Shown: positions 4,076-37,522, counted from the first letter of the whole stretch. The stretch is 61,438 nucleotides of DNA, filler included, from an uncultured virus (IMG/VR IMGVR_UViG_2061766007_002631) (7 parts of one record of this genome joined end to end with filler, not necessarily neighbours in it); one strand, 5' to 3'. The notes: generated by a model from the letters alone, not told the origin. Numbers and translations: made by a program.

Positions 4076-5357
4076 AAACTATGCCCAGCCTGGCAACGAC
4101 CGGACATTTGTCCGGGCAACCACGGGAAGCGCCAGAATTCTGCACGTCTACGGCGACAGCGCGGTAATCCTGCTGGGATGCAACGGCGGTATGATGGCTC
4201 AGGACACTGAGTACAACGGGCCTTTCAAGGTCGAATACATTACCACTCTGCCCAATCGTGATATCGTCGTCAGTGTCCACCAGGGAACGATCCAGTTTGG
4301 GGCTGGTTCTACGGACTTTTTAAGAACATTCACCTATACTGGCGGCCTTGTGACGATCCCGTATGACACTGGCGGATATGTTTATCTGCAGGGGTATAAA
4401 ACCCGTGAATATGCTCATACGGACAGGGTATTTGTCGACTATATCATCAATGCGATTGGTTCAAGTGCCACCAATCAAAGCAGATTGAACGAATTCACGA
4501 CTCTCTTGGGCCGCTGCTACCGTGGCGGGACAGTCACTCAGGTTCAATCCGGCAACGTCATGATACCAACGTGTATCGGACCGGGGTCCGGCCTGCATTA
4601 CACGGCGGTCGGAAACAGTGGATATCATGGTATCGCTCTGAATCCGGCAATTTCATACAGCGCGGGCGGTGTCTGCGTGACATCAAGTCTTGTGAATCGC
4701 CCTGTCGGTGAATCCGATTATGTTCCGACCGCTCATGCAGTTGAGCAGTTCGTTTCAAGCTGTGTTATGGACAGATGCCGCAGCCTGATCAATGCAAACA
4801 ATCTTTATGATCCGTTCCAATATGAGTACGAACATTCCGATTTCTATCCTCCGTACAGACCGACCGTTACTGCGGATATAACGAGTTCGACCAGCGGGGC
4901 AGTCGTTCTGACAGCTTCCTTCACTGCTGATACCGAGAAAGGGGAGTATTCCAAAGACGGCGGTTCGACCTGGATTCCGTACCCGTCGAGCGGCGGAGTT
5001 TCCATAACTTCGAACGCCATCGTGTACTTCCGAGGCATCGATTCGAACGGAAACCAGTCGCCGGTGATGCAGTACGGCGTGAGCAACATCAGCCTGGAAG
5101 ATCCGCAGATCCCAACCATTTTTGCGAACACTACGTCTCCGACAACCGATCCGGTACTCGTAACGGCAAACTTTTACGGAGGCGGAATCAAAGCGAACGA
5201 ATACAGTCTGGACGGCGACACATGGACAAGATATCCGACCGGCGGGGTCAGGATGGAATCGAACGGGACGGTTTCTTTCCGTTCGGTCAACAGCGCAGGA
5301 CGCTCGGCATCCCGGTCCTACACGGTTACCAACATTGTCAGTTCATCCTCAACATAA
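4076..5357 (+). CDS. Tail-tip protein variant with two C-terminal Ig-like repeats (5' truncated)
   Basis: The start aligns with the tail protein at 28417-28656 (TFVRATTGSARILHVYGDSAVILLG vs IFVRASSGTAKILHVSGTTAVILLG). It ends in two ~80-aa repeats P.(V/I).A..T......V..TA.F......EYS.DG..W..YP..GGV...SN..V.FR. Confidence 0.7.
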
Positions 5358-5373
5358 AGGAGAAAAAGAATCC

Positions 5374-6658
5374 ATGCAGGAACACATCATCTATCTCGAC
5401 GCGCACGAATCGGTCGCAGTCGTGCGGGACGAGAAAAACATGAGGACGCTTCCGCCTCCCACGCTCGTGCGAGGGACGGCATGTATCCTCAAACTGCGAC
5501 TGTTTGCCGAGCGGATCGGCACGACCCCGTATCCCATCGCAAATCTCTATGATGTCGTGAGCTGGCAGTGGGCGATGGACTCGGACTTTTACGACCGCAG
5601 CCCATACAAGCTCGTCGGAGACAACCCGAACATCGAACTCAATTCCGTACAGGAATTTCGCGATGGAATCGGGCGCGTGTATACTCAGATTACAATCCCG
5701 ATGCCCTCAATGGAATCCAATGAACTTGCCCGGTGGCTGGGCTCGGAACCTGTTCGAGCTGGACTGACCGGGGAACTGACGGGCTTCGATGCCACTGGCT
5801 CCCCGATTTATATCCTGCAGATCGAGGGATTCAAAATCCGAAACCGCATCGTGTCCTCGGCGGCTTTGCCCACGTCCTCTTCGAGTGCTGTGTCGGGCGT
5901 CACGCTTGAACAAATCCAGCAAATGATCAACCAGGCCATCGTCAATGCAGGCGGGAACAGTTCTGGCGGGAACAACAGCTCCTCCGGCGACAGCGGAGGC
6001 AATTCGAGTTCCGGCAGTGGCGGAAACAACAGTTCGTCCGGCTCTGACGGAAATAATAGCTCCTCCGGTAGCGGCGGGCATTCCGGCGCATACGAGAACG
6101 AGACCGGCGGNNNNNNNNNNTGCCAATATCGAGCTCAATTCCGTGCAGGAATTCCGGGATGGCATCGGGCGGGTTTATACCCAAATCACGATTCCGATGC
6201 CCTCAATGGAAACCAACGAGCTTGCGCGATGGCTTGGCTCCGAGCCTGTCCGAGCTGGACTGACCGGGGAGCTGACCGGCTTCGATTCCACGGGGGCTCC
6301 GATCTACATCCTGCAGATTGAAGGCTTCAAGATCAGAAACAGAATCGTATCCTCTGCGGGGCCGACCACATCGTCTTCGGGTGCCGCGATTGCCGGTATC
6401 ACGATGGAACAACTCCAGCAAATGATCAACCAGGCAATCGTCAACGCAGGCGGGAGCAACAGCTCCTCCGGTTCTGGCGGGAACAACAGTTCCAGCGGCT
6501 CCGAGGGCAACAATTCGAGCTCCGGCACTGGTGGCAACAACACTTCCAGTGGTTCTGGCGGGAACAACAGCTCTTCCGGCTCCGCTGGCAGCTCCGGCGC
6601 GTATGAGAACGAGACCGGCGGCGCCATCAGCGAAGATATCACCTACGACATTCTGTAA
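5374..6658 (+). CDS. Tail/baseplate protein A with Gly-Asn-Ser linker (two overlapping copies, 5374-6110 and 6121-6658)
   Basis: AAGGAG RBS, MQEHIIYLDA..., ends GAISEDITYDIL*. Further ends at 6787 and 7728, always followed by fibre gene B. Confidence 0.7.
6450..6590 (+). repeat. 27-nt coding tandem repeat GGNNSSSGS (about 5 units; a different unit set at 5950-6075)
   Basis: GGSNSSSGS GGNNSSSGS EGNNSSSGT GGNNTSSGS GGNNSSSGS. Confidence 0.85.
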
Positions 6659-6829
6659 CCGCGCATATTGCGCACAAACCATTTTAACAGGAGGAATCCT
6701 ATGGCCAATCAAAANNNNNNNNNNGGCGCATACGAAAACGAAACTGGCGGAGCGATCAGCGAAGACATCACTTACGAGATCCTGTAACCGCGCATTCCAG
6801 CGCATAAACCATTTCAAAGGAGGAATCCT

Positions 6830-8833
6830 ATGGCCAATCAAAAGATTCAACTCAAGAGCGTGAACGGGAACAAACTTTTCCCCCGCACAAGCATCAACAA
6901 CATCGTTGGTGAGGACTTCACGACCGTCGTCAGCATCCCCGTGCTGGACGGTACCGGCAAAATCAAGGCTGAGAACCTGCCGAGTTTCGTCGATGACGTG
7001 ATTGAACTCATCGCGGTCAGCGAGACGGCTCCGGCATCCTGCGCCGCGGGTGACATGTACTTCAACTCCGGTTCCACGAACANNNNNNNNNNTTGTTCCC
7101 TCGTACAAGCATCAACAACATCGTTGGTGAGGACTTCACGACTGTCGTCAGCATCCCCGTGCTGGACGGCACCGGCAAGATCAAGGCGGAGAACCTGCCG
7201 AGCTTCGTGGACGACGTGATTGAACTCATCGCGGTCAGCGAGACGGCTCCCGCGTCCTGCGCGGCGGGCGACATGTACTTCAATTCCGGCTCCACCAACA
7301 AGAAGATCTACACCGCNNNNNNNNNNTGATTGGGGAGAATCCGTCTACGACAGTCCGTACAGCAACCGACAGGCGGCAGTGGATTCCGTTCCGAGGGAAA
7401 CCGTGGTAGAAACATATTATGACAATCCCGGCTTCCACTGTTTCTCTCGGATGTACGACGATGTCTGCGTGGATTTGGAATTGCGCCTTCCGATTTCGGT
7501 CGCTCCATACTACGAAGAAGAAATGCCCGATGAGCTCAAGCCGAAATCCGGATACCTGGTCGTCAATGTAGCCGACCCGTTCGTCGGAATATATGACCCG
7601 CTGAATGCCCCGGTCACGNNNNNNNNNNAGGGAACAACAGTTCCTCCGGTAGCGGCGGGCATTCCGGCGCATACGAGAACGAGACCGGCGGCGCAATCAG
7701 CGAAGATATCACTTACGACATTCTGTAACCGCGCATCCGTGCGCATAAACCATTTCAAAGGAGGAATCCTATGGCCAATCAAAAGATTCAACTCAAGAGC
7801 GTGAACGGGAACAAGCTTTTCCCCCGCACAAGCATCAACAACATCGTCGGTGAGGATTTCACGACCGTCGTCAGCATCCCCGTGCTGGACGGCACCGGGA
7901 AAATCAAGTCGGAAAATCTGCCGAGCTTCGTGGACGATGTGATTGAACTCATCGGTGTCAGCGAAACTGCTCCCACCAGCTGTGCCGCGGGCGACATGTA
8001 CTTCAATTCCGGCTCCACAAACAAAAAGATCTACACCGCCACCGCNNNNNNNNNNAACCGGCAAAATCAAGGCAGAGAACCTGCCGAGCTTCGTGGATGA
8101 CGTGATCGAGCTCGTCGCGGTCAGCGAAACGGCTCCCGCCAGTTGCGCCGCAGGCGACATGTACTTCAACTCCGGCTCTACGAACAAGAAAATCTACACC
8201 GCCACAGCGGCCAATACGTGGGGAACCACCGGCGTCGAACCCGAAAAGAGCAAAATTTACGTCAACATCGCCGACAACAAGACCTACCGCTGGTCTGGCA
8301 GCACGATGACAGAAATCGGCAAGCTGCCGGCCATCGCGACCACCATTCGCGTGTCCGGCACCGCTGACGACAATCATGTCGCGTCCGAGAAAGCTGTTCG
8401 CGATGCCCTCGTCGCCGCAGGAGCTTACACGCTCCCGGCTGCCACGTCGTCTGAACTCGGCGGTGTCAAGGTCGCCGCCGTTGCCACCTCTGGTCTGAAC
8501 AATGCGTCCGGGAGCATCAGCCTTGCCACAGCCAGTGCCTCCCAGCTCGGCGGCGTGAAAATCGGGTCGAACATTTCCGTCAGTAACGGCGTGATTTCAG
8601 TTGCCGAAAGTACCAATTCCCAGAAGGGTGTCGTCCTCACGAAAAGCACCGTTGACGGCAACAACACCTCCCTGTCCGCCACCGACTCCGCAGTCGGGAC
8701 TGTCCCGACCGTGTGGGCCGTTGAAACCGCCCTGAAAGCGAAACAGGACAAGCTCACTGCTGGTACGGGCGTCTCCATCTCGAACGGCACGGTCAGCGTG
8801 GCCGACACGGTCATCTACGAGGTCGTCTCCTGA
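6830..8833 (+). CDS. Tail fibre protein B (fragments of several copies; starts 6701, 6830, 7771; end 8833)
   Basis: MANQKIQLKSVNGNKLFPRTS...GKIKAENLPSFVDDVIE...KIYVN..YRWSG, YTLPAAT..LGGVK repeats, ends DTVIYEVVS*. Confidence 0.78.
7327..7618 (+). CDS. Hypothetical protein fragment (probably a tail protein)
   Basis: Open frame DWGESVYDSPY...DPLNAPVT across the contig; no recognised motif. Confidence 0.4.
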
Positions 8834-8849
8834 CCCCGAACGCTCCTGA

Positions 8850-8874
8850 ATCCGTCCGGCATCCGGCCGGACGG
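8850..8874 (+). terminator. Intergenic hairpin after fibre B (TCCGTCCGGC-ATCCG-GCCGGACGGA)
   Basis: Perfect 10-bp stem, same at 34379-34403, diverged version near 19808-19837. Weak or no U tract, so it may not terminate. Confidence 0.45.
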
Positions 8875-8996
8875 AACACATCCCACCNNNNNNNNNNCAC
8901 CAGGGGGTGCCAATACTATCCCTGGCACGGGCAGGTGAACAACTGTCCGGGGCATCAGTACACATGTGTGGACGCAAATGGAACCCNNNNNNNNNN

Positions 8997-9376
8997 GCGA
9001 GGCAGTCGCGGTTACCCCGAAGGGGCTGAAGACCGAGCTCGACAAAAAAGCGAACAGCTCCCACACGCACAACTACCAGGCCGTGCTTACGGCGGGGAAC
9101 GGCATCGCGATTTCGAGCAACGTGATCTCCGCCGACATCACCACCACGGCTTCGAACGGCGTCGCCCTCGCGTGGGATGGATCGACCGACAATGCGAAGA
9201 AGATCAAGGTCACGGCAACCGCCGCGACTGCTTCTGCTCGTGGCACGGTCATTCTGGCCTCCACGACTGAAGCGACCACCGGCACGGACACGGCGAAAGC
9301 CGTCACCTGCGCTGGCGTCAAGGCCGCGCTCGACAATCGGCTCGCGTCCTACATCACCTACGAGGAACTGGCTTAA
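8997..9376 (+). CDS. Tail fibre protein C, C-terminal fragment
   Basis: AVTPKGLK..LD.KA..SHTH and ATA...GTV.LA...EA..GT fibre repeats; ends ASYITYEELA*. Confidence 0.78.
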
Positions 9377-9491
9377 CACCCCAATGGGGTGACGAGCGGT
9401 GGTGTGCTACGCGACACCACGAAAAATCAATACATGCTGGGGGAGAGTTCGCTCTCCCCGGCATGTTTGAACTCAAATCGAAAGGTTTTCT

Positions 9492-9637
9492 ATGGCTGAG
9501 AATAAGAAAATCTTACTCAAGTCCTCGGCTGGAGATAACCTGTATCCACGGGCATCTCTCGACAATCTGGTGGATGTCGTCGGAGGAACGACAGCCGTGC
9601 AGGTCCCGACACTGGATTCCTCCGGGCATATCGAAAG
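9492..9637 (+). CDS. Tail fibre protein D N-terminus
   Basis: MAENKKILLKSSAGDNLYPRASLDNLV, same as the start at 17687 (minus). Confidence 0.75.
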
Positions 9638-9879
9638 NNNNNNNNNNNNNNNNNNNNNNNNNNNNNNNNNNNNNNNNNNNNTTAATTAATTAANNNNNNN
9701 NNNNNNNNNNNNNNNNNNNNNNNNNNNNNNNNNNNNNGACTCGGCCAGCCCGCCTGGTGGTACAGATGCTGGGAACTGGCCGGGCTTGACCTCAGGAACG
9801 CTTAACACACAGGAGGAAAAACATTGACTTCCATCGAAACCATCATTGAGCTGTACTATCAGGCTCAGANNNNNNNNNN

Positions 9880-10395
9880 AGGGTCGGGCGGTGCTTATGT
9901 AAGCCTCGGGCAAGGTGCCAGAATCGAGGGGCTCAAGGGCGAAGGACGTACAACGCCCTGCATCAACTTGAACAACCACTGGCTGAAGGCATCTGGCGGA
10001 GTTGCCGTAGAGAACGCTTTTATTTACAACGGTTTCAGCTACGATGATGAACCGATGTTCATGGGCGATATGAACCTGTCGAGCGTGACAATCGCCAACT
10101 GTTCGGCAACGCAGAGCGGCATGCTCATCCGCACCGAAGAAGGTGAAACGGCCAATCTCACGGACTGCGTGATTTCCGGCTATCATGATGACTGCAGGGG
10201 TGCTTTTGTTCAAATCGACGGGGAAAGCCGCCTCAACATGAGCCGTTGTTCTATCGTTGGCAATAGCGGCGGAACCGTTACCGAAGAAGGGCCGATGCAT
10301 TTGTATGGTTATACCACTGCCGATTCCTGCACGTTCGCAAGCAACGCAATTACTGCGTCTGCAGGCAAAAACACGCATGGCGGGGTGGCATGGAT
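9880..10395 (+). CDS. Right-handed beta-helix (pectin-lyase-like) fragment, probably part of a fibre tip
   Basis: Repeating L..(C/V).(I/F)..N patterns (LTDCVISG, MSRCSIVGNSG, SCTFASNA). Confidence 0.5.
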
Positions 10396-10495
10396 NNNNN
10401 NNNNNNNNNNNNNNNNNNNNNNNNNNNNNNNNNNNNNNNTTAATTAATTAANNNNNNNNNNNNNNNNNNNNNNNNNNNNNNNNNNNNNNNNNNNN

Positions 10496-10748
10496 CGAAC
10501 ACTTCTCTGCGTCGTTCACCCTGCGCTACGGCAAGACTTTGACCGCAATCACCCGCGACAACGTTGAGATCGAGCTTGCGGGGAAAGCCAATGCGGACGG
10601 AGTCCCGGCTTCCGATGCCAGCACCAATGTCGGCACTGACGGCAATCTCCGCGTCAAGATCGGTCGGCAGATCAACGGATATGCCGTTGACCTCGTGGAA
10701 GCCGGAGCAGATCCCGACAAGGTGGTCGATGCGCTGACCGACAAATGA
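10496..10748 (+). CDS. Phage lipoprotein C-terminal part (last late gene)
   Basis: ASFTLRYGKTLTAITRDNVEIEL...DKVVDALTDK*. Overlaps the N-terminal fragments at 11445-11701; second end at 15007-15060. Confidence 0.7.
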
Positions 10749-10760
10749 ACCATCTGGGTT

Positions 10761-10808
10761 CCCGCCTACGCCTCCGACTGGTCCCCAGCCATGCGCAACC
10801 TTGGCGGG
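10761..10808 (-). ncRNA. Candidate conserved structured element (three-stem hairpin)
   Basis: CCCGCC/GGCGGG here vs CCCGGC/GCCGGG at 14947-14994 is a compensatory change. Inner stems pair with G-U wobbles only on the strand antisense to the late genes. Confidence 0.4.
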
Positions 10809-10816
10809 CTTTTTCT

Positions 10817-10859
10817 TCCGTCCAGGTCTGACCTCGGTCAAGCCTGGCGGATTTTTTTT
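10817..10859 (+). terminator. Rho-independent terminator ending the late operon
   Basis: CCAGGTCTGAC-CTCG-GTCAAGCCTGG followed by a T8 run; homolog at 14901-14935 (minus). Confidence 0.75.
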
Positions 10860-11444
10860 ACCTTCGCGCTGGAAGACACGGCGGCTTTCGTGGCGATCTT
10901 TCGGCTATGTCCCGCACAACGCATAAAGGATTGGTTCAGGGGCATCCTGCCAGGGGGCCAACCTCGGCCAAATCGGCCTTTCTGGCCATTCTTTGGCATA
11001 AAANNNNNNNNNNATGCGAACACCCGGTAAGAACGAGCAGGACGGGGATCGCGAGGGTAAGAAAGATTTCTTTCATGGTTTTAGCCTTTCAATAGTTGAT
11101 GGTGAAAAACGCTGCCAAGACAAGCAGGAACAGCACGAGCAGGAGGAATCCGAAGACGAACACAATAGCGAGGCTGGCAAGCTCATCCATTCGCTTTCGC
11201 CTGCTCACGCGCCTTCGTGCAGATCGGACATTCGCACGGAGAACACCAGGCGGGCCACCCGAAGAGTTCACAGTAGTTCCCGAAGCGCCGTGCCTGGTTC
11301 CAGACGATGTAGCGACGCGGATTGAAGAACGAGAAGGAACACTTGGCGACGGCCTTGCCGTTCCGCTTGAAGCGGGCATTGGATTCGGAGAACGAATCTT
11401 TCGTCTTGTCGCTTTCGTGCCACTCGACATCGTGNNNNNNNNNN

Positions 11445-11701
11445 TTGCGGTAAGGGTCTTGCCGTAACGCAGGGTAAAAGACGCCATCATGTGTTCGGGG
11501 TCGACACCGACGTCCACGCCGATACCGTCGCCATAGATGACGGAGTTATGTCCGCATGCGCTCAGGACGAGCAGAGCGGGNNNNNNNNNNATCGACACCG
11601 ACATCCACGCCGATGCCGTCGCCATAGATGACGGAGTTATGTCCGCATGCACTCAGGACGAGCAGAGCGGGAATCGCGAGGGTGAGAAAGATTTCTTTCA
11701 T
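11445..11701 (-). CDS. Phage lipoprotein N-terminal fragments (other starts at 11076 and 11858)
   Basis: MKEIFLTLAIPALLVLSAC / ...VLLVLTGC: signal peptide II with lipobox. Confidence 0.75.
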
Positions 11702-11869
11702 GTTTTTTGCCTTTCAATAGTTGATGGTGAAAAACGCTGCCAGGAGAAGCAGGAACAGCACGAGCAGAACGAAGCCGAAGACAAGCACAACAGCGAGGCT
11801 GGCAAGCTCATCCATTCGNNNNNNNNNNGATCGCGAGGGTAAGAAAGATTTCCTTCATTTTTTTGCCTT

Positions 11870-11971
11870 TCAATAGTTGATAGTGAAAAACGCTGCCAGG
11901 AGAAGCAGGAACAGCACGAGCAGGACGAAGCCGAAGACAAGCACAACAGCGAGGCTGGCAAGCTCATCCAT
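11870..11971 (-). CDS. 33-aa single-pass membrane peptide (copies at 11089-11190 and near 11713-11814)
   Basis: MDELASLAVVLVFGFVLLVLFLLLLAAFFTINY. Start overlaps the upstream stop; only conservative changes across three copies. Confidence 0.65.
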   Translation of the reverse strand: MDELASLAVVLVFGFVLLVLFLLLLAAFFTINY

Positions 11972-12474
11972 TCGCCTGCGCCTGCTCACGCGCTTTCGTG
12001 CAGATCGGGCATTCGCACGGCGAACACCAGGCGGGCCATCCGAAGAGTTCGCAGTAGTTCCCGAAGCGACGCGCCTGGTTCCAGACGATGTAGCGACGAG
12101 GATTGAAGAACGAGAAGGAACACTTGGCGACGGCCTTGCCGTTACGTTTGAAGCGGGCGTTGGACTCGGAGAACGAATCTTTCGTCTTGTCGCTTTCGTG
12201 CCACTCGACATCGTGTATCAGGGCGACCGGAGCAAGGCTTGGATGCAGGGAAGAAATGACCTTGCGAAGCCACTCCGGGAACGAATCGGGACCGATGCCG
12301 TTGTAGATCTTTGCCAGGTCCTCGAACGAGTACCGTTCGAGGATGTCCGTNNNNNNNNNNATTGTAGATCTTTGCGAGGTCCTCGAACGAGTACCGTTCG
12401 AGGATGTCCGTGTTCTCAAGATGGAACTTCTGAGCCTGATAGTACAGCTCAATGATGGTTTCGATGGAAGTCAA
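11964..12474 (-). CDS. Phospholipase A2-like (DUF1353-type) protein, TTG start
   Basis: AGGAGG RBS plus TTG (same at 9824, + strand). Motifs YNGIGP...VALIHDVEW...SNARF and a C-terminal CSPCECPIC. Second copy at 11183-11434. Confidence 0.55.
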
Positions 12475-12488
12475 GGTTATTCCTCCTG

Positions 12489-12944
12489 TCAATCGATTTC
12501 AATTCCAGCCAGCTGCCAGCATCGGTACCACCACTGAGGCTGTCCATATCCGATTTTGGAGCCAAAGTATTTGCCCTGCTCGTTGGCAGCCGACCACTGG
12601 ATGGCGAGGCTGTTCCCCATAACTGGGTTTGCCTGATANNNNNNNNNNTGCGAAAGCATGAGTGCCTGGACGGGGTTGTTCGCCACTGCCTCGGACTGGT
12701 CAAACAGCGGGATTTCATCCAGACCGCCGTGGAAGTCTTCATCCCCGATGAACTGGCCGATGGCGGCACAAATCGCTCGGAAGTATGCGCAGGCCGCCTC
12801 GAACTCCTGTTCCTGAGTCGGAGTACCGTCATCCGTGATGACGCCGCCAAGCAGCTCAAACAGCTCTTCCGTCATGGGGCTCATGTTCAGATACGGATCG
12901 GGCAGAGCCTTGAAGGTCTGCCCGTCGATGGTGTAAAGTTTCAT
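12489..12944 (-). CDS. Hypothetical protein directly after the last fibre gene (possible fibre chaperone)
   Basis: AGGAGG RBS, MKLYTIDGQTF...GQPQWWYRCWQLAG; homologous end at 9738-9805. Confidence 0.6.
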   Translation of the reverse strand: MKLYTIDGQTFKALPDPYLNMSPMTEELFELLGGVITDDGTPTQEQEFEAACAYFRAICAAIGQFIGDEDFHGGLDEIPLFDQSEAVANNPVQALMLSXXXXYQANPVMGNSLAIQWSAANEQGKYFGSKIGYGQPQWWYRCWQLAGIEID

Positions 12945-12958
12945 GGATTATGCCTCCT

Positions 12959-13291
12959 TTATGTCGTTGTCAGCGTACCGGAGCTTGTGAGTTTCGTGCC
13001 GGAACCGGAGATTGTCTTGCGCGCATTGCTGGTGATGATGGTGGCGGAGCCGCCCATTGTCCACGGATTCAGGTCATAATCTCCGGGTTCACCATGACCG
13101 ACAATGATGTTGGCTGCGGACATAACAGTGGCTGTTGTTGCATTTGTCAAATCAAGCACAGCCCCGGACGAGATATAAACCGTTGCCGAAGCACCAGCAC
13201 CCTGTGAAATCACACCGTCGAAACGGTTGGAACCGGCGAGAATAATCTGTGTTCCTTTGAACTCGGTAACTACGTTGTTTATGCCGGGACC
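12959..13291 (-). CDS. C-terminus of the last fibre-like gene (probably E); second copy at 14389-14538
   Basis: Beta-rich ATVYISSGAVLDLTN...TISGSGTKLTSSGTLTTT*. Confidence 0.6.
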   Translation of the reverse strand, partial: GPGINNVVTEFKGTQIILAGSNRFDGVISQGAGASATVYISSGAVLDLTNATTATVMSAANIIVGHGEPGDYDLNPWTMGGSATIITSNARKTISGSGTKLTSSGTLTTT

Positions 13292-13496
13292 NNNNNNNNN
13301 NATTATCGAAGAAAAGCGATTCTTTCTTCATATTTCTTTTTTCAATGCCTCATAATGAGGTTATTGAAATATCAAGTGTAAAAGCGAAGAAAAACGAGAA
13401 AAAGATTCGGAGCATGGTATTTCTGAATAGCAAGTCGGAATGCGAAGAAAAAGCGAAAAAAGATTTGCCCGGCATCCAGCCGGGCGTGTTCGATGT

Positions 13497-13912
13497 TTAC
13501 TCTTCTTTTCGGAAGGCTTCGATGATGTGGTGCGCGGCCGCGAACAGCTCTTTGGCAGTTTCGGTCATACCTTCGTCCTCGGCATAGATTTCAATCTTTT
13601 CGAGGTGTTCCTCGAGCTCGTCCAGGTCTCCGTTNNNNNNNNNNGTGGGCGGCCGCGAACAGCTCTTTGGCGGTTTTGGTCATACCCTCGTCCTCGGCGT
13701 AGATTTCAATCTTTTCGAGGTGTTCNNNNNNNNNNTTTGGCGGTTTCGGTCATGCCTTCGTCCTCGGCGTAGATTTCAATCTTTTCAAGGTGTTCCTCGA
13801 GTTCGTCCAGGTCTCCGTTCCAGACCTCGGAGATTCCGCTCGGTTCGCCCGTGGCCACACAGCAGATGCTGTCCATCGCGGCGATCAGGCTTTCGGTTTG
13901 CAGTCTTTTCAT
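13497..13912 (-). CDS. Small acidic hypothetical protein (three overlapping copies)
   Basis: MKRLQTESLIAAMDSICCVATGEP...EDEGMTETAKELFAAAHHIIEAFRKEE*. Confidence 0.65.
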
Positions 13913-13968
13913 GTTCGTTCTCCGGTTGGACATGACCCGCCAGGTGGCGGGCCATGCTGTTGGTGGGT

Positions 13969-14287
13969 TCAGTATTCGTCGCCTTCGCAGTCGAAGTCGT
14001 ACTCGTCTTCATCTTCGTCTTCGAAGAGGTCCACGTCGAACCAGTCCATGATGGTGGCGAGCAGGTGATTGTAGTCGCCCGAGGTCGCTTCCTTGTGGAA
14101 CTCGTCCCACATCTCCATCTTGCCCGCTCTCCGAAGTGCCTGGCGGCACCGACCTAAGCAGGCGAACGCGTTTCCGTCTTCTCCGACCATTTTCACTTTC
14201 ACNNNNNNNNNNTTGGCACCGCCCTAAGCAGGCGAACGCGTTTCCGTCTTCTCCGACCATTTTCACTTTCACGTTTGTTTTGCTCAT
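13969..14287 (-). CDS. Small conserved phage protein (VGEDGNAF...GDYNHLL motif) with acidic tail
   Basis: GGAGG RBS, MSKTNVKVKMVGEDGNAFACLGRC...ATSGDYNHLLATIMDWF; two overlapping contigs. Confidence 0.7.
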
Positions 14288-14638
14288 CTTGAGCCTCCGT
14301 CATTTTGGAGTTTTTGTTTGGTTCGCGAGCGGCCCGTGCCGCCCGCTCGACATCAATTAATTAAGCGCATAATTCGTTNNNNNNNNNNGTTTGTCAGGTC
14401 AAGCACAGCCCCGGACGAGATGTAAACCGTTGCCGAAGCGCCAGCGCCCTGCGAAATCACGCCATCGAAACGGTTGGAGCCGGCGAATATAATCTGTGTT
14501 CCTTTGAACTCGGTAACTACGTTGTTTATGCCGGGACCNNNNNNNNNNNNNNNNNNNNNNNNNNNNNNNNNNNNNNNNNNNNTTAATTAATTAANNNNNN
14601 NNNNNNNNNNNNNNNNNNNNNNNNNNNNNNNNNNNNNN

Positions 14639-14864
14639 CAGAATCCTGTTTCGCGGAGGATGTCGGATGCTTTCCAGAGGGCTTTCTTGGCGGCGGCCAC
14701 CTGCTTCTGTGCTTTCTTCAGTTCCTCGACGATTGCCATGTCTTGCGAGTTCCTGATGCCATCTTCGAGAAGGTCTATCACGCTCGTGAGGCAGTCCGAA
14801 GCTTCCCAGCCATCGCTGTGCATAGCCCCGGCGATTTTCTGACCGGCTTCGGTGTTCCAGAAGG
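14639..14864 (-). CDS. Hypothetical helical protein fragment
   Basis: Open frame FWNTEAGQKIAGAMHSDGWEASD...ILRETGF. Confidence 0.45.
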
Positions 14865-15243
14865 NNNNNNNNNNGCCGTCGTGTCGTCCAGCGCAAAGGC
14901 AAAAAAATGCCAGGCCTAACCGAGGTCAGACCTGGACAAAAAAAAGCCCGGCAAGGTTGCGCATGGCTGAGATCCAGTCGGAGGCGTAGCCGGGACCCCA
15001 GACGGTTCATTTGTCGATCAGAGCGTCGACCACCTTGTCAGGATCGGCTCCGGCTTCCACNNNNNNNNNNATTCGGGAATCTTGCATTCGATTCTCTTTT
15101 TCATGTTGCATCTCCTTGTTGTCGTGTGGGTCGCCCTATGCTTCCCGTTCTGTTGTTAATTTAGCGTACTATTCGTTAATAGNNNNNNNNNNNNNNNNNN
15201 NNNNNNNNNNNNNNNNNNNNNNNNNNNNNNNNNNNNNNNNNNN

Positions 15244-15457
15244 AGCGCCATTGGTGACGGTGGCATCAGTTTTCACTGTACCGAACTGGTTCGCACCAGC
15301 AGTCTGTGCGACAGCCTTGAGCGGCGAGCCGTTACCGCCTTGAATTTTAACGCCGTTTGACACCGTATCGTCTACAGTGGCACACAGGACAGGAGCCAGG
15401 GGNNNNNNNNNNGTCACCGCCTGTGTTTTTGATTTGGACTTTCTTGTTTTCTGCCAT
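15244..15457 (-). CDS. Tail fibre protein E, N-terminal fragments (second start at 16380)
   Basis: MAENKKVQIKNTGGD starts 16 nt after the gene D stop. The next contig has VDDTVSNGVKI..AVAQTAGANQFGTVK, similar to fibre C repeats. Confidence 0.6.
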
Positions 15458-15473
15458 GAAAAAAATCCTTCTG

Positions 15474-16364
15474 TTATTGGTTTGATCGACTGATGGCTAC
15501 GGAGAGTTCATTGTCGATGATCGCCAACGAATACACCGTGCCATTTGCTGTGAGTGATCCGTTCAATGCGAGGGTTCCGAGGCTAACGCCGTCATCCGTT
15601 CGCACCTGCATTTCTGTATTCCATGAGGAGCAAATTCCGCCAAGGGCGTACACCCCGGACGGCTGATCCTCAGCTACGGTCAGCGTGTGCGTGACCACAG
15701 CATTGTTGCTCCTCGATATTTTCGAGATATCGTTGAATCTGGCCGTGTCCCCAGGAGACATATCCGCGATACGGAAATCCAGAATGGCTCCGTTGTACAA
15801 AACAAGGCTTCCGCCGTTCAGAACACTGCATTGCCCCGTCAGCGTTCCCCCTTCGAAAGCGTGGAGCGAACCGCCGCTCGAAATGATGGCGTTGCTGACA
15901 TAATTGCCACTGTGGATCGTCGCCGACTGAGAAGCCGACAGTGTAAGATTCGGGATAACAGTCTGCTCGAACTGGCCGACAGCTCCGGTCGGAACACGAA
16001 CATATCCGCCGTATTCGACGATATTGGTGGCTGTGCCGCCTGACGATACGAACAGAAGACAACCCGTGTTTGCCGTTACATTTTCCAGAAGTCCGCCTTT
16101 TTGAACTTCAATGGTTCCTTTGCAGCAGTCCACATATTGAACGTGGCCCCCTGGAATGTACATGGTGCCCGGACTGTTCCAGGCGATGTCTGCGGCGGCA
16201 CCACCGGATGACACAGTGAAGTTGCCGGATGTTACCGTGATCCGTTTCGCGCTTCCGCCGCTCAGAACGCGGATAAAACCGGATGCTTCCTCAGCGTCCC
16301 GAAGCAAAGCGCCGGACGAAACGTAGATTGTTCCGTTCAACGCAACACGAGCAGCCGGTGGAAA
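15474..16364 (-). CDS. Tail fibre protein D, AIDA-like repeat C-terminal region
   Basis: V.SGG.A repeats (VLSGGSA, VSSGGAA, VSSGGTATNIVEYGGYV); ends LSVAISRSNQ*. Confidence 0.75.
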   Translation of the reverse strand, partial: FPPAARVALNGTIYVSSGALLRDAEEASGFIRVLSGGSAKRITVTSGNFTVSSGGAAADIAWNSPGTMYIPGGHVQYVDCCKGTIEVQKGGLLENVTANTGCLLFVSSGGTATNIVEYGGYVRVPTGAVGQFEQTVIPNLTLSASQSATIHSGNYVSNAIISSGGSLHAFEGGTLTGQCSVLNGGSLVLYNGAILDFRIADMSPGDTARFNDISKISRSNNAVVTHTLTVAEDQPSGVYALGGICSSWNTEMQVRTDDGVSLGTLALNGSLTANGTVYSLAIIDNELSVAISRSNQ

Positions 16365-16396
16365 NNNNNNNNNNCGCCATGTAAAAAATCCTTCTG

Positions 16397-17687
16397 TTAT
16401 TGGTTTGAACGGCTGACCGTCACGGAGAGCTCATTGTCGATGATTGACAAAGAGAACACCATGCCGTTTGCCGCGAGTGATCCGTTCAATGCGAGCGTTC
16501 CGAGGCTGACGCCATCGTCTGTTCGCACCAGCAGTTCTGTATTCCATGAGGAGCAGTTGCCGCCGAGAGCATACACCCCGGACGGCTGGTCTTCCGATAC
16601 CGTCAGTGTGTAAGAAACGACGGCGTTGTTGCTCCTCGATATTTTCGACGTATCATTGAATCTGGCCGTGTCTCCCGGAGACATATCCGCAATGCGAAAG
16701 TCAAGCACGGCTCCGTTGTACAGAACCATGCTTCCGCCGTTCAGAACACTGCATTGTCCCGTCAGCNNNNNNNNNNCATACACCCCGGACGGTTGGTCTT
16801 CCGATACCGTCAGGGTGTAAGAAACGACGGCATTGTTGCTCCTCGATATTTTCGTTGTGTCATTGATTCTGGCCGTGTCGCCCGGTTGCATGTCCGCAAT
16901 ACGAAAATCCAGGACAGCACCGTTGTACAGGACTAGGCTTCCACCGCTCAGGACATTGCATTGCCCGGTCAAAGTTCCGACCTCGAAAACATGGAGCGAA
17001 CCGCCACTCGAAATGGTGGCGTTGCTGACATAATTGCCGCTATGGATCGTCGCCGACTGAGATGCGGATAGAGCGAGATTCGGTATAACGGTCTGCTCGA
17101 ACTGACCGATGGCTCCGGTCGGAACACGAACATATCCGCCGTATTCGACGATATTGGTGGCTGTGCCTCCGGACGACACGAACAGGAGACATCCCGTGCT
17201 TGCCGTTACATTTTCCAGGAGCCCGCCTTTTTGGACTTCGATGCTGCCTTTGCGGCAGTCCAAAAACTGGACATGGCCGCCTGGAATGTACATGGTTCCG
17301 GGACTGTTCCAGGTCATGTCCGTGGCTGCTCCACCGGACGATACCGTGAAATTGCCGGATGTGACGGTAATCCGTTTCGCGCTTCCGCCGCTCAGAACAC
17401 GGATAAAACCGGAGGTTTCCTCCACGTCTCTGAGCAGAGCACCGGACGAAACATAGACTGTGCCGCTCACCGTGACTCTCGCTGCAGGAGGAAAGAAGTC
17501 NNNNNNNNNNNNNNNNNNNNNNNNNNNNNNNNNNGAAACGGCTTTCGATATGCCCGGAGGAATCCAGTGTCGGGACCTGCACGGCTGTCGTGCCGCCGAC
17601 GACATCCACCAGGTTGTCGAGAGATGCCCGTGGATACAGGTTGTCTCCAGCCGAGGACTTGAGTAAGATTTTCTTATTCTCAGCCAT
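16397..17687 (-). CDS. Tail fibre protein D with AIDA-like repeats (further copies, gapped)
   Basis: MAENKKILLK start at 17687, scaffolded to the same V.SGG.A repeat region. Confidence 0.72.
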
Positions 17688-17755
17688 AGAAAACCTTTCG
17701 ATTTGAGGTCAAACATGCCGGGGAACAAGTCCCCGGCACAAATGAGGTTCTGGAA

Positions 17756-19773
17756 TCAAGCCAGCTCTTCGTAGGTGATGTAGCCGGACAATCTGTTGTC
17801 GATGGCGGCCTTGACACCCGCACAGGTGACGGCCTTCGCCGTGTCGGTGCCGGTGGAAGCTTCGGTCGTACTGGCAAGGATGACCGTACCACGTGCGGAG
17901 GCGGTCGCAGCGGTCGCCGTGACCTTGATTTTCTTGGCATTGTCGGTCGAGCCATCCCATGCGAGGGCGACGCCGTTCGAAGCCGTGGTCGTGATGTCCG
18001 CGGAAATCACGTTGCTNNNNNNNNNNAGTGCCGGTGGAAGCTTCAGTCGTGCTGGCCAGGATGACCGTACCACGGGCGGAGGTGGTTGCAGCGGTCGCCG
18101 TGACCTTGATCTTCTTTGCGTTGTCGGTCGAGCCGTCCCATGCGAGCGCGACGCCGTTCGAAGCCGTGGTCGTGATGTCCGCAGAAATCACGTTGCTGGC
18201 AATCGCGATACCATTTCCAGCGGTCAGCGGAGCCTGGTAGTTGTGCGTGTGGGAAGTGTTCGCCTTCTTGTCCAGTTCGGTCTTCAGTCCCTTCGGGGTA
18301 ACGGCGACGGCTTCGCTGGTGCCGGTCGTGGCCTCGGTCGTAGTCGCCAGGCGAACAGTACCGACAGCCGCAGTCGTACCGAGGACGGCCACCGCGCTGA
18401 TNNNNNNNNNNGGAGATCGCGATGCCGTTTCCAGCGGTCAGCGGAGCCTGGTAGTTGTGCGTGTGGCTGGTGTTCGCCTTTTTCGCGAGTTCGGTGGCGA
18501 GTCCCTTCGGGGTAACGGCGACGGCTTCGCTGGTGCCGGTTGTGGCCTCNNNNNNNNNNGGTGCCGCTGTTCACTGCAATCTTGACGCCGTTGGATGCGG
18601 TCTCGTCAACCTGCAGGATACCCTTTGCCGTAGTGGAGCCGGTATTAACGGACAGAACCTCGCTGGCGATGCTGAGGCCGGTGCCGACCTTCACGCCGCC
18701 CTTGGTCGAACTGGATGCGGTCGGGAGCGAGTAGCTGTAGGTGTTGCTGACCGTGCCGTTCGAGATACTNNNNNNNNNNCAGACCCGCGCCGACCTTGAC
18801 GCCGCCCTTGGTCGAGGAAGATGCAGTCGGGAGCGAGTAGCTGTAGGTGTTGCTGATCGTGCCGTTGGAAATACTGATGTTCGTTCCGGGAGTCAGCGTT
18901 CCCTGCTTGGCGTCGAGGGCGTCCTGGAGGCCGGAGACGTTTGCGATGGAGTGCGTGTGGGAGCTTGCAGCCTTGCCGCCGAGGGCGGTGGCGACGGCCT
19001 TTTCGGTCGGGACGACGGTATCAAGCGCGGAACTCGTCGCCCGAACACTCGTAACGGTGGAGACCTGCTTGGAAATCTCCACCATCGCACTTCCAGACCA
19101 GCGGTAGATTTTGCTGTCCGCGAGGTTGACGTAAATCTTGCCAGTCTCCGGCGTGGTTCCGGTCGTTCCCCATGTGTTGGTCGCGGTCGCCGTATAGATT
19201 TTGAGGTTGCCGGACGCATTATTGAAGTACATGTCCCCGACGGCGCAGGTAGTCGGCGCGGTACCCGTGATCGCTTTCAGGTCGATGATGTCATCCACGT
19301 AACTCGGCAGATAGGAACTGTCNNNNNNNNNNGTCGAGGGCGGAACTGGTAGCCCGGACGCTCGTGACGGTGGAGACCTGCTTCGAGATCTCGACCATCG
19401 CGGAGCCAGACCAGCGGTAGATTTTGCTGTCCGCGAGGTTAACGTAAATCTTGCCAGTCTCCGGTGTGGCTCCGGTCGTTCCCCATGTATTGGCCGCAGT
19501 CGCCGTATAGATTTTGAGGTTGCCGGACGCATTGTTGAAGTACATGTCACCGATGGCGCAGGTGGTCGGCGCGGTGCCCGTGATCGCTTTCAGGTCAATG
19601 ATGTCATCAACGTAGCTCGGCAGATAGGAACTGTCGAGTTTGCCGTTGGCATCGAGGACGGGAACGCTGACGGATACGGTACTGCCGACGGCATCCACGA
19701 GGTTGTCAATGGATGTGCGCGGGAACAGGGCATCGCCCGAAGTGGATTTCAGAAGGATTTTCTTGTTTGCCAT
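17756..19773 (-). CDS. Tail fibre protein C (fragments of several copies)
   Basis: MANKKILLKSTSGDALFPRTSIDNLV...LPSYVDDII..., HTHSIANVSGLQDALD repeats, ends GYITYEELA*. Confidence 0.78.
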
Positions 19774-19866
19774 AAATGGTTTCTCCTATGATTTGAGGTG
19801 AAAAAGGACTCCGCCAGGCAGATTCGCCAGACGGAGCCGATGAATTGGATTTGTGTTCGGGTCAGG

Positions 19867-20997
19867 TCAGGAGACGACTTCGTAGATGANNNNNNNNNNN
19901 NNNNNNNNNNNNNNNNNNNNNNNNNNNNNNNNNNNNNNNNNNNNNNNNNNNNNNNNNNNNNNNNNNAGTGGCGGACAGGGACGCATTGTTGCCGTCAACG
20001 GTGCTTTTCGTAAGGACAACGCCCTTCTGGGAGTTGGTACTTTCTGCCACGCTGATGACGCCGTTGCTGACGGAAATATTCGACCCGATTTTCACGCCGC
20101 CGAGCTGGGATGCGCTCGCGGTCGCAATGGAGATGGAACCGGAGGCATTGTTGATGCCNNNNNNNNNNGGAGGCGTTATTGCCATCAACGGTGCTCTTTG
20201 TGAGGACGACGCCCTTCTGAGAGTTCGTGCTTTCGGCCACGGAGATCACGCCGTTGCTGACGGAGATGTTCGACCCGATCTTCACGCCGCCGAGCTGCGA
20301 TGCGCTCGCGGTCGCAATGGAGATGGAACCGGAGGCATTGTTGATGCCGGAGGTGGCGACCGCGGCGACTTTGACGCCGCCGAGATCGGACGCGGTGGCA
20401 GCGGGGAGCGTGTAAGCACCTGCGGCAACAAGGGCATCGCGAACAGCCTTTTCGGACGCGACATGATTGTCATCCGCGGTACCGGACACGCGAATGGTGG
20501 TAGCGACGGCGGGCATCTTACCGATTTCCGTCATCGTGCTGCCGGACCAACGGTACGTCTTGTTGTCGGCGACGTTGACGTAAATCTTGCTCTTTTCGGG
20601 CTCGACTCCGGTGGTTCCCCAGGTATTGGCTGCGGTGGCGGTGTAGATCTTCTTGTTCGTGGAGCCGGAGTTGAAATACATGTCGCCTGCGGCGCAGCTG
20701 GAAGGAGCCGTCTCGCTCACGGCGACGAGCTCGATCACATCGTCCACAAAGCTCGGCAGGTTTTCCGCCTTGATTTTGCCGGTACCGTCCAGCACGGGAA
20801 TGGAGACGACGGTCGTGAAGTCCTCACCCACGATGTTGTTGATGGATGTACGGGGGAACAGCTTGTTCCCGTTTACGCTCTTGAGTTGAATCTTTTGATT
20901 GGCCATAGGATTCCTCCTGTTAAANNNNNNNNNNCTCGTCCGGGGGAACAGCTTGTTCCCGTTCACGCTTTTCAATTGGATTTTTTGATTGGCCATA
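19867..20997 (-). CDS. Tail fibre protein B (fragments; starts 20907 and 20997)
   Basis: Same protein as 6830-8833. Confidence 0.78.
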
Positions 20998-23462: not shown

Positions 23463-24158
23463 ATGGCGGCAAAAGTTGAACAGAACTATAAGGAGCACGC
23501 TACCAGCATCGACCGCTGGGGACGATATACGTCGGTCGAAGTCCCGTATATCGTTTTCGATGCCGCGGACGAGGATGCGGCTCTTACAGCCGTCCTCAAC
23601 ACGGCCCCGAAGACGCTACACAGTCTTCCGCTGGATGCCATCGAGATCGACAGCCGCGAGGGAGACACCACGTTCAAGGTGAACGCGACGTACAGAGCGG
23701 AGACCAGCACGGAATCTTATGGCGATGACGAGGAGGACGAGGAGTCCACCATCAGTTTCGACTGTGGTGCCGGAACAAAGCATGTGTCGTTCGCTATTGA
23801 TCAGCGTATCGCATACGGTTCGATTGATGCAGGCGGAGCGATTGGATGGAACGGGAAGCACGGCACGGAAATGGAGATCGCCGGTGTNNNNNNNNNNGCT
23901 GACCGCCGTCCTCAATACGGCCCCGAAGACGCTTCACAGCCTCCCTCTGGATGCCATCGAGATCGACAGCCGCGAAGGCGACACGACCTTCAAGGTGAAC
24001 GCGACGTACAGAGCGGAGACCAGCACGGAATCTTATGGCGATGACGAGGAGGACGAGGAGTCCACTATCAGTTTCGATTGTGGTGCCGGGACGAAACATG
24101 TGTCGTTTGCTATCGATCAGCGAATCGCCTATGGCACGATAAACGCCGGAGGCGCTAT
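23463..24158 (+). CDS. Tail protein following the tape measure gene (distal-tail-like), two copies
   Basis: AGGAG RBS, MAAKVEQNYKEH...LPLDAIEIDSREG...ISFDCGAGTKH. Confidence 0.72.
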
Positions 24159-24168
24159 NNNNNNNNNN

Positions 24169-25097
24169 TCACCTCAATCCGGAACATTGCCGGGGAGACG
24201 TGGGGAGCCATCAAGACCGCCTTCATGTCCGGCGACCTCGCCGGAGCAGCCAGAGTCGGCCTCGCCGCTCTGAAGCTCGCCTGGCTGACCGGGCTCCAGC
24301 CGCTGAAGAAGGCGTGGGCGGGCTTGAAGATGTTCCTTGCGGACAGCTGGACCGTCATCGTGTACTCAATTCTGAAGCTCGGAAACAACCTCTGGTACGG
24401 CTTGCTTTACGGACTGAAATCCATCGGCAATGCGATGCAGGACGCCTGGGCTTTCATCTGGAACGGCATCATCGCTGCCTTCGAAAAGACCGTGCTGGAA
24501 ATCCAGAAAGTCTGGATCAAGACGAAGGGCTTCTTCGACTCCGACGAGGAAGTCGAGGCCGAGATCGCCCGCGTCGAACGGGCATACAATGAACGGAAGA
24601 GTGCCAGAGAAAACGCGAAAGCACAGGCCTCCGCGCAGCGGAAAGCCGAGCTTGAAAGCCTCGGCAGCAAGTGGGATGCCGCCAATGCGGGTGCGGACGA
24701 AGCACAGATGCAGGAGATTCTCGCTCATCAGAAAGCATATCAGGATGCTCTAAGCGGAGCCGCCGAGGAGATCGCAAGCGCCCGTGCCGCCTGGCAGGAT
24801 GCAATGGAAGAAGTGAAGCAGAAAGCCGCGGAGAAAGCTGAGAAAGTCGAGGAAATCCGCGAGAGGACAGAAGCCGCCGCCGAGGAAACGGAGCGATCCG
24901 AGGTCAAGATTCAGGAGATTTCCACAGCCGGAGAAAAGTCGATGGGAGCGTGGAGTTCGGAAGCCTTGGATGCTCTCCTCGGCGGCGGTGCGCAGGAGCG
25001 AACAGCGAAAGCGACCGAGCAAATGGCGAAAAACACGCAGCAGACGAACAAGTTGCTGAAGAAAATCGGGCAGGAAAAAGCCCTGACTTACGGATAA
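24169..25097 (+). CDS. Tape measure protein C-terminal fragment
   Basis: AFMSGDLAGAARVG...EKALTYG*. Confidence 0.9.
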
Positions 25098-37511: not shown

Positions 37512-37512
37512 C
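36981..37512 (-). CDS. C5-cytosine DNA methyltransferase, internal fragment
   Basis: Hand-translated main frame: DLLVGGTPCQSYSIAG (motif IV), WENVPG (VI), LDAQY..IPQRRRRLF (VIII). Confidence 0.9.
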
Positions 37513-37522
37513 NNNNNNNNNN

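Follow-up and report, generated by a model that had tools for sequence, protein, structure and literature searches.

A shared N-terminal module and a recurrent C-terminal peptide in the fibre cassette of uncultured prophages: a candidate connector pair

The 61,438-base stretch of DNA analysed here in its full length (the window), which originates from an uncultured virus (IMG/VR record IMGVR_UViG_2061766007_002631), carries a cassette of host-recognition (fibre) genes that belongs to an uncultured long-tailed prophage. It comprises five genes, A to E; the products of B, C, D and E begin with a common N-terminal module (N-module), and the products of A, B and C end with a similar short peptide (C-motif). 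This pair of motifs is real and non-random, and it extends well beyond the window. Both motifs are under protein-level selection, and they may represent the two halves of a connector between the fibre proteins and the tail tip.

The window consists of 136 pieces, mostly 100–2,500 bases long, joined by N10 runs and, at six sites, by TTAATTAATTAA spacers with N on either side. Mapping of the proteins of an intact relative onto the window with tblastn revealed several divergent copies of the same genes; the tape-measure gene, for example, is present at least four times, with 85–99% identity. The window is therefore a patchwork of assembly fragments from several variants of one prophage, and its coordinates do not give the gene order of any one genome. 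The tape-measure copies are located at 21391-23382, 24108-25094, 40233-38443 and 48619-46250. The gene order had been read in a preliminary description of the window from the junctions A>B, B>C, C>D and D>E, and each of these junctions lies inside a single piece. The same order is found uninterrupted in the intact relative, the IMG/VR contig L001, which is 96% identical over B, as well as in a more distant relative (L002, 82%), and it is kept in every longer contig of the lineage found among 41 metagenome loci and one genome locus. A carrier metagenome-assembled genome is labelled Lachnospiraceae in one source. In L001, gene A is preceded by the genes of a tape-measure protein (813 amino acids, aa) and three baseplate-region proteins (273, ~281 and 358 aa), and gene E is followed by the gene of a 135-aa acidic protein (p135) and by lysis-region genes.

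Both motifs were recovered from the window with regular expressions, in agreement with the preliminary description, which had noted a common start of B, C, D and E and a similar terminal strand on A, B and C. Nine starts carry the N-terminal motif (6830, 7771, 9492 and 34439 on the plus strand; 15457, 17687, 19773, 20906 and 20996 on the minus strand). The expression used for the C-terminal motif, [IV]xY[DE] followed by two or three residues and a stop, was applied to all six frames and gave seven matches, every one of which is the end of A (stops at 6658, 6787 and 7728), B (8833 and 34361) or C (9376 and 17756); elsewhere in the six frames of the 61,438 bases there were zero matches.

The N-module occupies approximately 35–55 residues at the head of B, C, D and E and has the consensus MA(E)NKK[IV]x[LI]K..G..L[FY]PRT..DN[IL]V. 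The alignment of the four proteins contains 14 invariant positions in 48 columns, with a mean column identity of 69%; the segment common to all four is ~40–55 residues long, and a further module, extending to about residue 135, is present only in B, C and E. The pairwise nucleotide identity of the N-modules is 0.56–0.71 over 26 codons, and between one third and two thirds of the residues that are identical use different codons; in the pair C/D, for example, 20 of 26 residues are the same, and different codons are used for 10 of these 20. The N-modules are old paralogous segments under protein-level constraint and not recent copies. Recent gene conversion was considered as the cause of the N-terminal likeness and was ruled out by the codon differences.

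When residues 1–140 were used in an exhaustive profile search, 4696 proteins matched at E ≤ 1e-3. In this profile, positions ~38–133 correspond to a widespread fibre module (the knob), often internal in long proteins, and the first ~35 residues, i.e., the N-module, were found in 30 of the best 150 matches, always starting at residue 1–3 (about a third of these 30 proteins are incomplete fragments, and seven are of the E type). The N-module also occurs without the knob, in D of the window lineage and in both fibres, F1 and F2, of contig L085, and it is a separable, autonomous head unit that all fibres of a phage have in common. The single-chain fold of C residues 1–140, modelled from the L001 copy (L001:10990-11409), has a pLDDT of ~90 for the knob (residues ~55–130) and of only 56–66 for residues 1–50; this low confidence fits a segment that would become ordered on binding or trimerising. 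The domain following the N-module in B, C and E is predicted to be a small trimer-type β-knob.

The C-terminal peptide comprises 7–10 residues at the extreme end of the protein, with the pattern hydrophobic-x-[YW]-x-[acidic/Thr]-hydrophobic followed by 0–1 residue. Its carriers are the fibres B and C, the non-fibre protein A, where the peptide stands after a variable low-complexity tether, and a Dit-like protein in L085. The search with the A family gave 135 matches, of which 120 were listed, all being at least 69% identical. Among the homologues listed, the tail [DE]DI[TVIY]Y[DE]IL is kept in 119 of 120, the length varies from 235 to 296 aa owing to the variation of a Gly/Ser/Asn linker, and the last 20 residues include ten invariant positions. 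A distant A homologue with 39% identity, encoded by contig L086, keeps ..DLFYHEIE, and two of the three database relatives of the short A form keep DLFYHEI[ED]. In the Dit-like family (54–72% identical), six of 12 homologues carry an S/G/T linker with the invariant end MNW[IQ]EI[TPN], and the other six are devoid of the whole linker-plus-peptide appendage; the linkers are ~40 residues long, with quite different composition between the homologues, and the final peptide has ~8 residues. In all tail cases listed, an aromatic residue is situated 3–4 residues from the C-terminus. The C-terminal element thus behaves like a short linear docking peptide, since it has a fixed distance from the free end, is conserved beside variable linkers, is optional and is found on unrelated carriers.

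The co-occurrence of the two motifs in other phages, which the preliminary description had envisaged for adjacent genes, was found in part: tailed proteins, with a flexible linker and the end hydrophobic-x-[YW]-x-E-I-x, are encoded upstream of N-module fibres in L085 and L086, and this arrangement does not hold in L101, L055 and L088/L089/L093. Among the best 150 of the 4696 profile matches, the strict C-motif is present in 10 of the 30 N-module proteins and in one of the 120 others (one-sided Fisher p = 2.5e-7, an inflated value, since the proteins are related and the samples are not independent). The sole protein among the 120 that has the C-motif, P0249, contains an N-module that looks degenerate by eye. 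In the first 74 loci, 78 of 608 distinct open reading frames (ORFs) of at least 100 aa match the C-motif, and 76 of them, with alternative starts counted, are A, B, C or the fibre of L055; two are unrelated. The order of the carrier genome G001 (251 genomes) yielded three more genomes with N-module genes, and searches of the class (351 genomes) and of a phylum sample (401 genomes) around G001 revealed no lineage beyond the four from the order. Scanning with the A-family alignment found eight more viral contigs; IMG/VR was also scanned with alignments of the N-module, and each scan led back either to the lineage of the window or to the contig of L101 itself, with nothing else recovered. An E-type N-module start was also observed at the very edge of a bacterial contig (130 kb, genome G095; L087 14304-14507), with no phage genes upstream, and is probably an assembly join or a fragment.

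A comparison of the cassettes indicates how the carriers of the peptide vary. The window lineage has the order A (with the tail), B and C (each with both the N-module and the C-motif), D and E (each with the N-module) and p135. In L085, a Dit-like protein with a ~40-residue Ser/Gly linker and the end ..GAGMNWIEIT is followed by a 520-aa protein, F1, F2 and a p135 homologue; F1, which has the N-module and ends with ..CLTYEEIT, stands directly before F2, which has the N-module and no tail. L085 contains no A gene, neither of its fibres has the knob, and the Dit-like carrier is not adjacent to F1, being separated from it by the 520-aa gene. In L086, a tail-less Dit-like protein is followed by a 412-aa protein, by the A homologue (184 aa, ending with ..GSLGPDLFYHEIE) and by an N-module fibre, which starts 25 nucleotides (nt) downstream of the tailed A homologue; the contig ends there. 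The two Dit-like proteins (L085 6968-6000, minus strand; L086 8105-8911) are homologous, and only that of L085 has the appendage. The carriers are thus complementary: the tail is on the Dit-like protein in L085, which lacks A, and on A in L086, where the Dit-like protein is bare. The gene bounds of A and the fibre in L086, like those of D and E in L033, were read by eye and not by a gene caller. Tails on A or Dit-like carriers were seen in the window lineage, L085 and L086, and in all three they occur together with N-module fibres.

It is plausible, and proposed here with some reserve, that the C-terminal peptide docks into the N-module of the fibre trimer; this would be the most economical mechanism because of the behaviour of the peptide, the poor order of the N-module head when it is modelled alone and the precedent of phage JBD30 discussed below. 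In this scheme, the N-terminal module of a fibre trimer would capture the peptide as a docking strand. The link between fibres and tail tip would be a tether formed by A or by the Dit-like protein, further fibres could be attached to B and C, so that compound fibres of a serial or branched kind would arise, and the peptide-less D and E would form the terminal tips. From the observed motifs, their selection, the gene order and the partial co-occurrence, we infer the contact, its stoichiometry and the pairing of tails with fibres. A broader form of this mechanism, a universal plug-and-socket in which any peptide-ended protein could carry any N-module fibre in a tethered, serial or tree-like manner, seems unlikely. 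If it were true, one virion would bear compound fibres made of four receptor-binding proteins, lone fibres with both motifs, like that of L055, could polymerise head to tail, and the host range could be re-wired simply through the transfer of a tail of ~10 residues or a head of ~40 residues from one gene to another.

Several observations weigh against docking of the peptide into the N-module. The three tails (A, B and C) in one phage share only about four positions, whereas the four N-modules are far more alike, and there are three tails for four N-modules in the window lineage. Alignments show that the last strand of the B- and C-type fibres resembles internal repeat strands of the same fibres, and this tail strand could simply be the end of the fibre fold. 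An A-like relative, P0290, has the linker without the motif. In L101, a tail-less 704-aa A-like protein is followed by proteins of 142, 380 and 637 aa and a p135 homologue; the three genes in a row are of the N-module type (two according to the hidden Markov model, the 142-aa one by eye), and the ends of the neighbours, ..GITAEDI, ..ALTAVDV and ..GSAVAS, do not contain the aromatic C-motif. L055 and L074 encode a lone fibre with both motifs (..GVFYEALS), and the upstream gene product has no tail. Long A-like proteins without any N-module gene are encoded by L088–L092 and L093/L094, and the N-module-free L088, L089 and L093 still carry similar C-terminal peptides; therefore, the peptide cannot depend on the N-module everywhere. 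Taken together, L101, L055/L074 and L088–L094 indicate that neither motif strictly needs the other. In the N-module-free phages, the peptides are also found on two small proteins of the fibre region, one of 188–286 aa (..LEWQTL) and one of ~105 aa (..TTYPIL); a sequence search of solved structures with the 188-aa protein of L093, which ends with ..LEWQTIE, gave no match. A DUF2190-like protein of the fibre region in these phages (L088 10114-10572; L093 10403-10768) contains a Ser/Gly stretch, followed by ..GIQWQTIN or ..DAEWQPL.

The two motifs may also have independent functions, a somewhat unlikely reading, where the N-module would be a common baseplate anchor of each fibre and the C-motif a closing strand or an oligomerisation tag of thin fibres; the four fibres would then be interchangeable or mixed receptor-binding proteins, and A would be a whisker with a low-complexity stalk. 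Small trimerisation hairpin tags are found on other fibrous phage proteins and were considered for the C-motif. Independent functions would account for the absence of the motif in D and E, which have large C-terminal domains, for the lone two-motif fibre of L055, for the L101 arrays without aromatic tails and for the motif in L088, L089 and L093. In relatives of the B type, a conserved ..GTGISI..GTVS[VL].. element precedes the motif, which forms the last strand, in agreement with a closing function; the resemblance of the knob to the trimerisation domains of collagens XV/XVIII and the finding that the N-terminal segment of the R4C fibre binds the baseplate itself (PMC10276861) point in the same direction. 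Against this stands the tail of the Dit-like protein, since a single ~8-residue strand on a ~40-residue variable linker is hard to read as fold-closing. Furthermore, the A and Dit-like tails are confined to the N-module lineages (3/3), with the complementary swap of carriers between L085 and L086, and the rarity of the motif in knob fibres without the N-module (1/120 among the best 150 matches) indicates that it is no general cap.

It is quite unlikely that the peptide has another acceptor, i.e., that it inserts into a shared tail-tip or baseplate component or is recognised by an assembly factor, e.g., p135, while the N-module attaches the fibres through a separate contact. Such an acceptor would fit the occurrence of similar peptides on different carriers in the N-module-free L088, L089 and L093, and the constant spacing between the aromatic residue and the C-terminus suggests recognition of a free end. 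The location of p135 is also in line with this suggestion. The members of the p135 family are small acidic Trp-rich proteins of 131–150 aa, matching no Pfam or PHROGs family, and their gene stands behind the last fibre gene in each of the three N-module lineages with a complete 3′ context (L001, L085 and L101), a position usually occupied by fibre assembly factors; p135 may be such a factor or a partner of the fibres. At the same time, no candidate acceptor is shared by all lineages examined: L085 has no A-like domain, and no p135 homologue with a length of at least 100 aa was seen in the N-module-free L093.

That the C-termini resemble one another by chance or history, without any function of their own, and that only the shared N-terminus is meaningful, is most improbable: the A/B/C motif has only about four defined positions, and these were defined after the fact, but the expression matches nowhere else in the six frames of the window, there are just two unrelated matches among the 608 ORFs of the loci compared, the A tail is kept in nearly all homologues listed beside a hypervariable linker, and the Dit-like tail is invariant in six homologues with 58–72% identity.

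The fold and the layout of the N-terminal part are, according to the models, closest to those of the R4C/RcGTA-type siphophage fibre. The knob (C residues 57–131) superimposes on residues 33–112 of the tail fibre of R4C (8gtc_T) with a Z-score of 8.8 and a root-mean-square deviation (rmsd) of 2.3 Å over 72 residues, well above the next rows of the structure search; the next matches were the collagen XV/XVIII trimerisation domains (Z 4–5). The R4C fibre has the same layout, a short N-terminal segment and then a small knob, and in the roseophage vB_DshS-R4C this N-terminal extension binds a baseplate protein (PMC10276861). The similarity is limited to 17% sequence identity, and the accessible sections of that paper describe one fibre gene with a lectin-like foot and mention no C-terminal peptide motif, unlike the present cassette, where the N-module is common to four genes, which extend into repeat fibres or β-helix domains. 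The knob is common in predicted viral structures, labelled mostly as tail fibre, tail protein or baseplate wedge. A sequence search of solved structures with the N-terminal profile gave nothing significant (best E = 0.21), and a search of the phage GenBank records of INPHARED found seven weak matches, every one to the knob region only.

The closest mechanistic precedent for docking of the peptide into the N-module appears to be Pseudomonas phage JBD30, where the C-terminus of the hub protein gp53 docks into the N-terminal trimer of the receptor-binding protein gp54 (PMC11445458), i.e., by the same hub-to-fibre mechanism as proposed here. Chain E of the JBD30 baseplate structure 8rk3 was the second phage match of the knob model, with Z 5.0 and an rmsd of 6.2 Å over 82 residues (26% identity); this match is weak (Foldseek E = 0.046, probability 0.96; hhalign probability 1.3%). 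We infer from length only that chain E, with 373 residues, is gp54, whose gene encodes 382 aa. JBD30 uses an α-helical bundle, whereas residues 1–50 of the present model are without a predicted helix, and JBD30 shows a single docking event and has neither a repeated motif pair nor a tether.

Conserved N-terminal docking peptides are also known from the anchor-branch systems of phages G7C, K1-5/SP6, Klebsiella phages KP32/KP34, Menlow and PhiK64-1 (PMC6872550; PMC13352976). The likeness consists of several receptor-binding proteins per phage and short re-used N-terminal parts, with the first protein or an adapter carrying the others. The acceptor there is a T4gp10-like domain in the first protein or adapter, whereas the candidate partner here is a C-terminal peptide, partly tethered; the present phages are, in addition, long-tailed and belong to a different host group. 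The T4gp10-like domain was not among the Pfam/PHROGs matches of A–E and the three upstream proteins, with no profile–profile search having been run. In the long tail fibre of phage T4, gp34, gp35, gp36 and gp37 are joined end to end, so that separate products of side-by-side genes form a segmented fibre in series. The T4 segments are not known to have a common plug-and-socket pair, and they need dedicated chaperones and a hinge protein; no homology to T4 long-tail-fibre proteins was detected.

Phages with several receptor-binding proteins are well known, and the parts that join these proteins have been described for few groups, mostly enterobacterial phages. The cassette, which occurs in uncultured prophages of gut-type bacteria, presents two compact end-modules that can be recognised from the sequence. 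Should they form a true connector, this would account for the way in which one tail tip accommodates four different fibres, provide a simple signature for fibre genes and their attachment order in metagenomes and offer small portable parts for phage re-targeting. Even if the motifs act separately, the C-terminal peptide that Dit-like and A-like proteins carry on a tether and the N-module common to four fibre genes are new; neither motif was found as a Pfam or PHROGs family, and, since the literature was searched for related systems and not for this motif pair, its absence from print is not claimed.

As to the fibre proteins themselves, the N-terminal part is followed, judging by sequence, by fibre repeats in B and C and by β-helix-like repeats in D and E. 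C passes the cut-off of the Pfam family PTR (PF12789; 42.4 bits vs 27), B remains below that of Phage_head_fibr (PF11133; 21.8 and 22.3 bits vs 24.6), with a weak match over an LGGVK-type repeat, and both match PHROGs tail-fibre families; PTR and Phage_head_fibr cover the shaft repeats only, and neither the N-module nor the C-terminal peptide. From these features, B appears to be a short fibre and C a repeat fibre of variable length. The C proteins compared have 415, 419, 489 and 677 aa (L001 10990-12237, L041 9001-10260, L045 1509-2978 and L033 9001-11034), with internal repeats gained or lost and both ends constant. The preliminary description regarded D and probably E as tips ending in adhesin-like domains without the C-terminal strand; both indeed lack the C-motif, and an adhesin domain is less evident, since D is under the cut-off of Pfam AIDA (PF16168; 21.4 bits for the window copy and 25.2 bits for the L001 copy vs 27), and E matches no family. 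Nevertheless, D can be considered a β-helix adhesin-like protein and E a large β-helix-like protein, judging by their repeats. E is ~695–836 aa long across the lineage, with different C-terminal parts; it is nearly missing from the window (15457-15413 and two short pieces only), and a sequence search of solved structures with E gave no match. A and the three upstream proteins of the L001 type, like E, matched no Pfam or PHROGs family, and the fold model of A, based on a 19-sequence alignment, has a mean pLDDT of only 34, which is too low to use.

Table 1. Coordinates of cassette genes and their neighbours in the window, of the intact cassette in L001 and of p135 homologues in three lineages.
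Sequence	Feature	Coordinates	Strand	Description
Window	Gene directly upstream of A	4191..5357	+	388 aa, Ig-like C-terminal repeats; neither motif; variable baseplate-region protein; Pfam CHB_HEX_C 24.7 bits vs cut-off 23.6; on one assembly piece with A (4076-6110)
Window	A, first 245 codons	5374..6110	+	Globular domain, short helix, start of Gly/Ser/Asn-rich linker; cut by assembly gap; 95% identity to L001 A residues 1-192
Window	A, second variant, C-terminal 178 codons	6121..6658	+	Linker, conserved tail ..GAYENETGGAISEDITYDIL, stop
Window	A tail, third variant	6725..6787	+	..EDITYEIL, stop; B start on same piece
Window	B, N-terminal 84 codons with N-module	6830..7082	+	Start 43 nt past A stop
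Window	A tail, fourth copy	7630..7728	+	..EDITYDIL, stop
Window	B, N-terminal piece with N-module	7771..8045	+	
Window	B, C-terminal 258 codons	8056..8833	+	Ends ..GTVSVADTVIYEVVS, stop; weak sub-threshold Pfam head-fibre match
Window	C, C-terminal 125 codons	8997..9376	+	Ends ..LASYITYEELA, stop
Window	D, N-terminal 48 codons with N-module	9492..9637	+	Same piece as C end
Window	p135 family, small acidic Trp-rich protein	12492..12944	-	76% identical to L001 homologue
Window	E, first 15 codons with N-module	15413..15457	-	Start 17 nt past D stop
Window	D, C-terminal ~296 codons	15474..16364	-	β-helix-like repeats; ends ..SVAISRSNQ, stop; no C-motif
Window	D, second variant, in pieces	16397..17687	-	N-module 17687-17535, remainder 17500-16397
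Window	C, second variant, C-terminal pieces	17756..18401	-	Ends ..SGYITYEELA, stop at 17756
Window	C, second variant, N-terminal pieces	18780..19773	-	N-module and knob from 19773 downwards
Window	B, further variant(s)	19967..20996	-	Starts 20996, 20906; 246 codons 20906-20169; piece 20158-19967
Window	B, C-terminal 120 codons	33998..34361	+	Ends ..DTVIYEVVS, stop; next C start on same piece
Window	C, N-terminal 330 codons	34439..35430	+	N-module, knob, phage-tail repeats; query for Pfam/PHROGs scans and phage-record search
L001	A	9161-9958		265 aa, ends ..EDITYDIL
L001	B	10001-10900		299 aa, ends ..DTVIYEVVS
L001	C	10990-12237		415 aa, ends ..SYITYEELA
L001	D	12306-13418		370 aa
L001	E	13435-15945		836 aa
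L001	p135 homologue	15961-16368		
L085	p135 homologue	2618-2166	-	
L101	p135 homologue	11755-12150		

The slot upstream of A is variable: the Ig-like protein listed for the window is replaced by the unrelated 358-aa protein in L001 (8088-9164) and by a 570-aa fused form in L033 (5479-7191) and L049. A low-GC piece of the window (36981-37218, minus strand) begins an ORF, the start of which resembles, by eye only, part of a DNA methyltransferase; the GC content is ~0.31 in the surrounding bin 36001-38000, which also contains a gap of 906 N.

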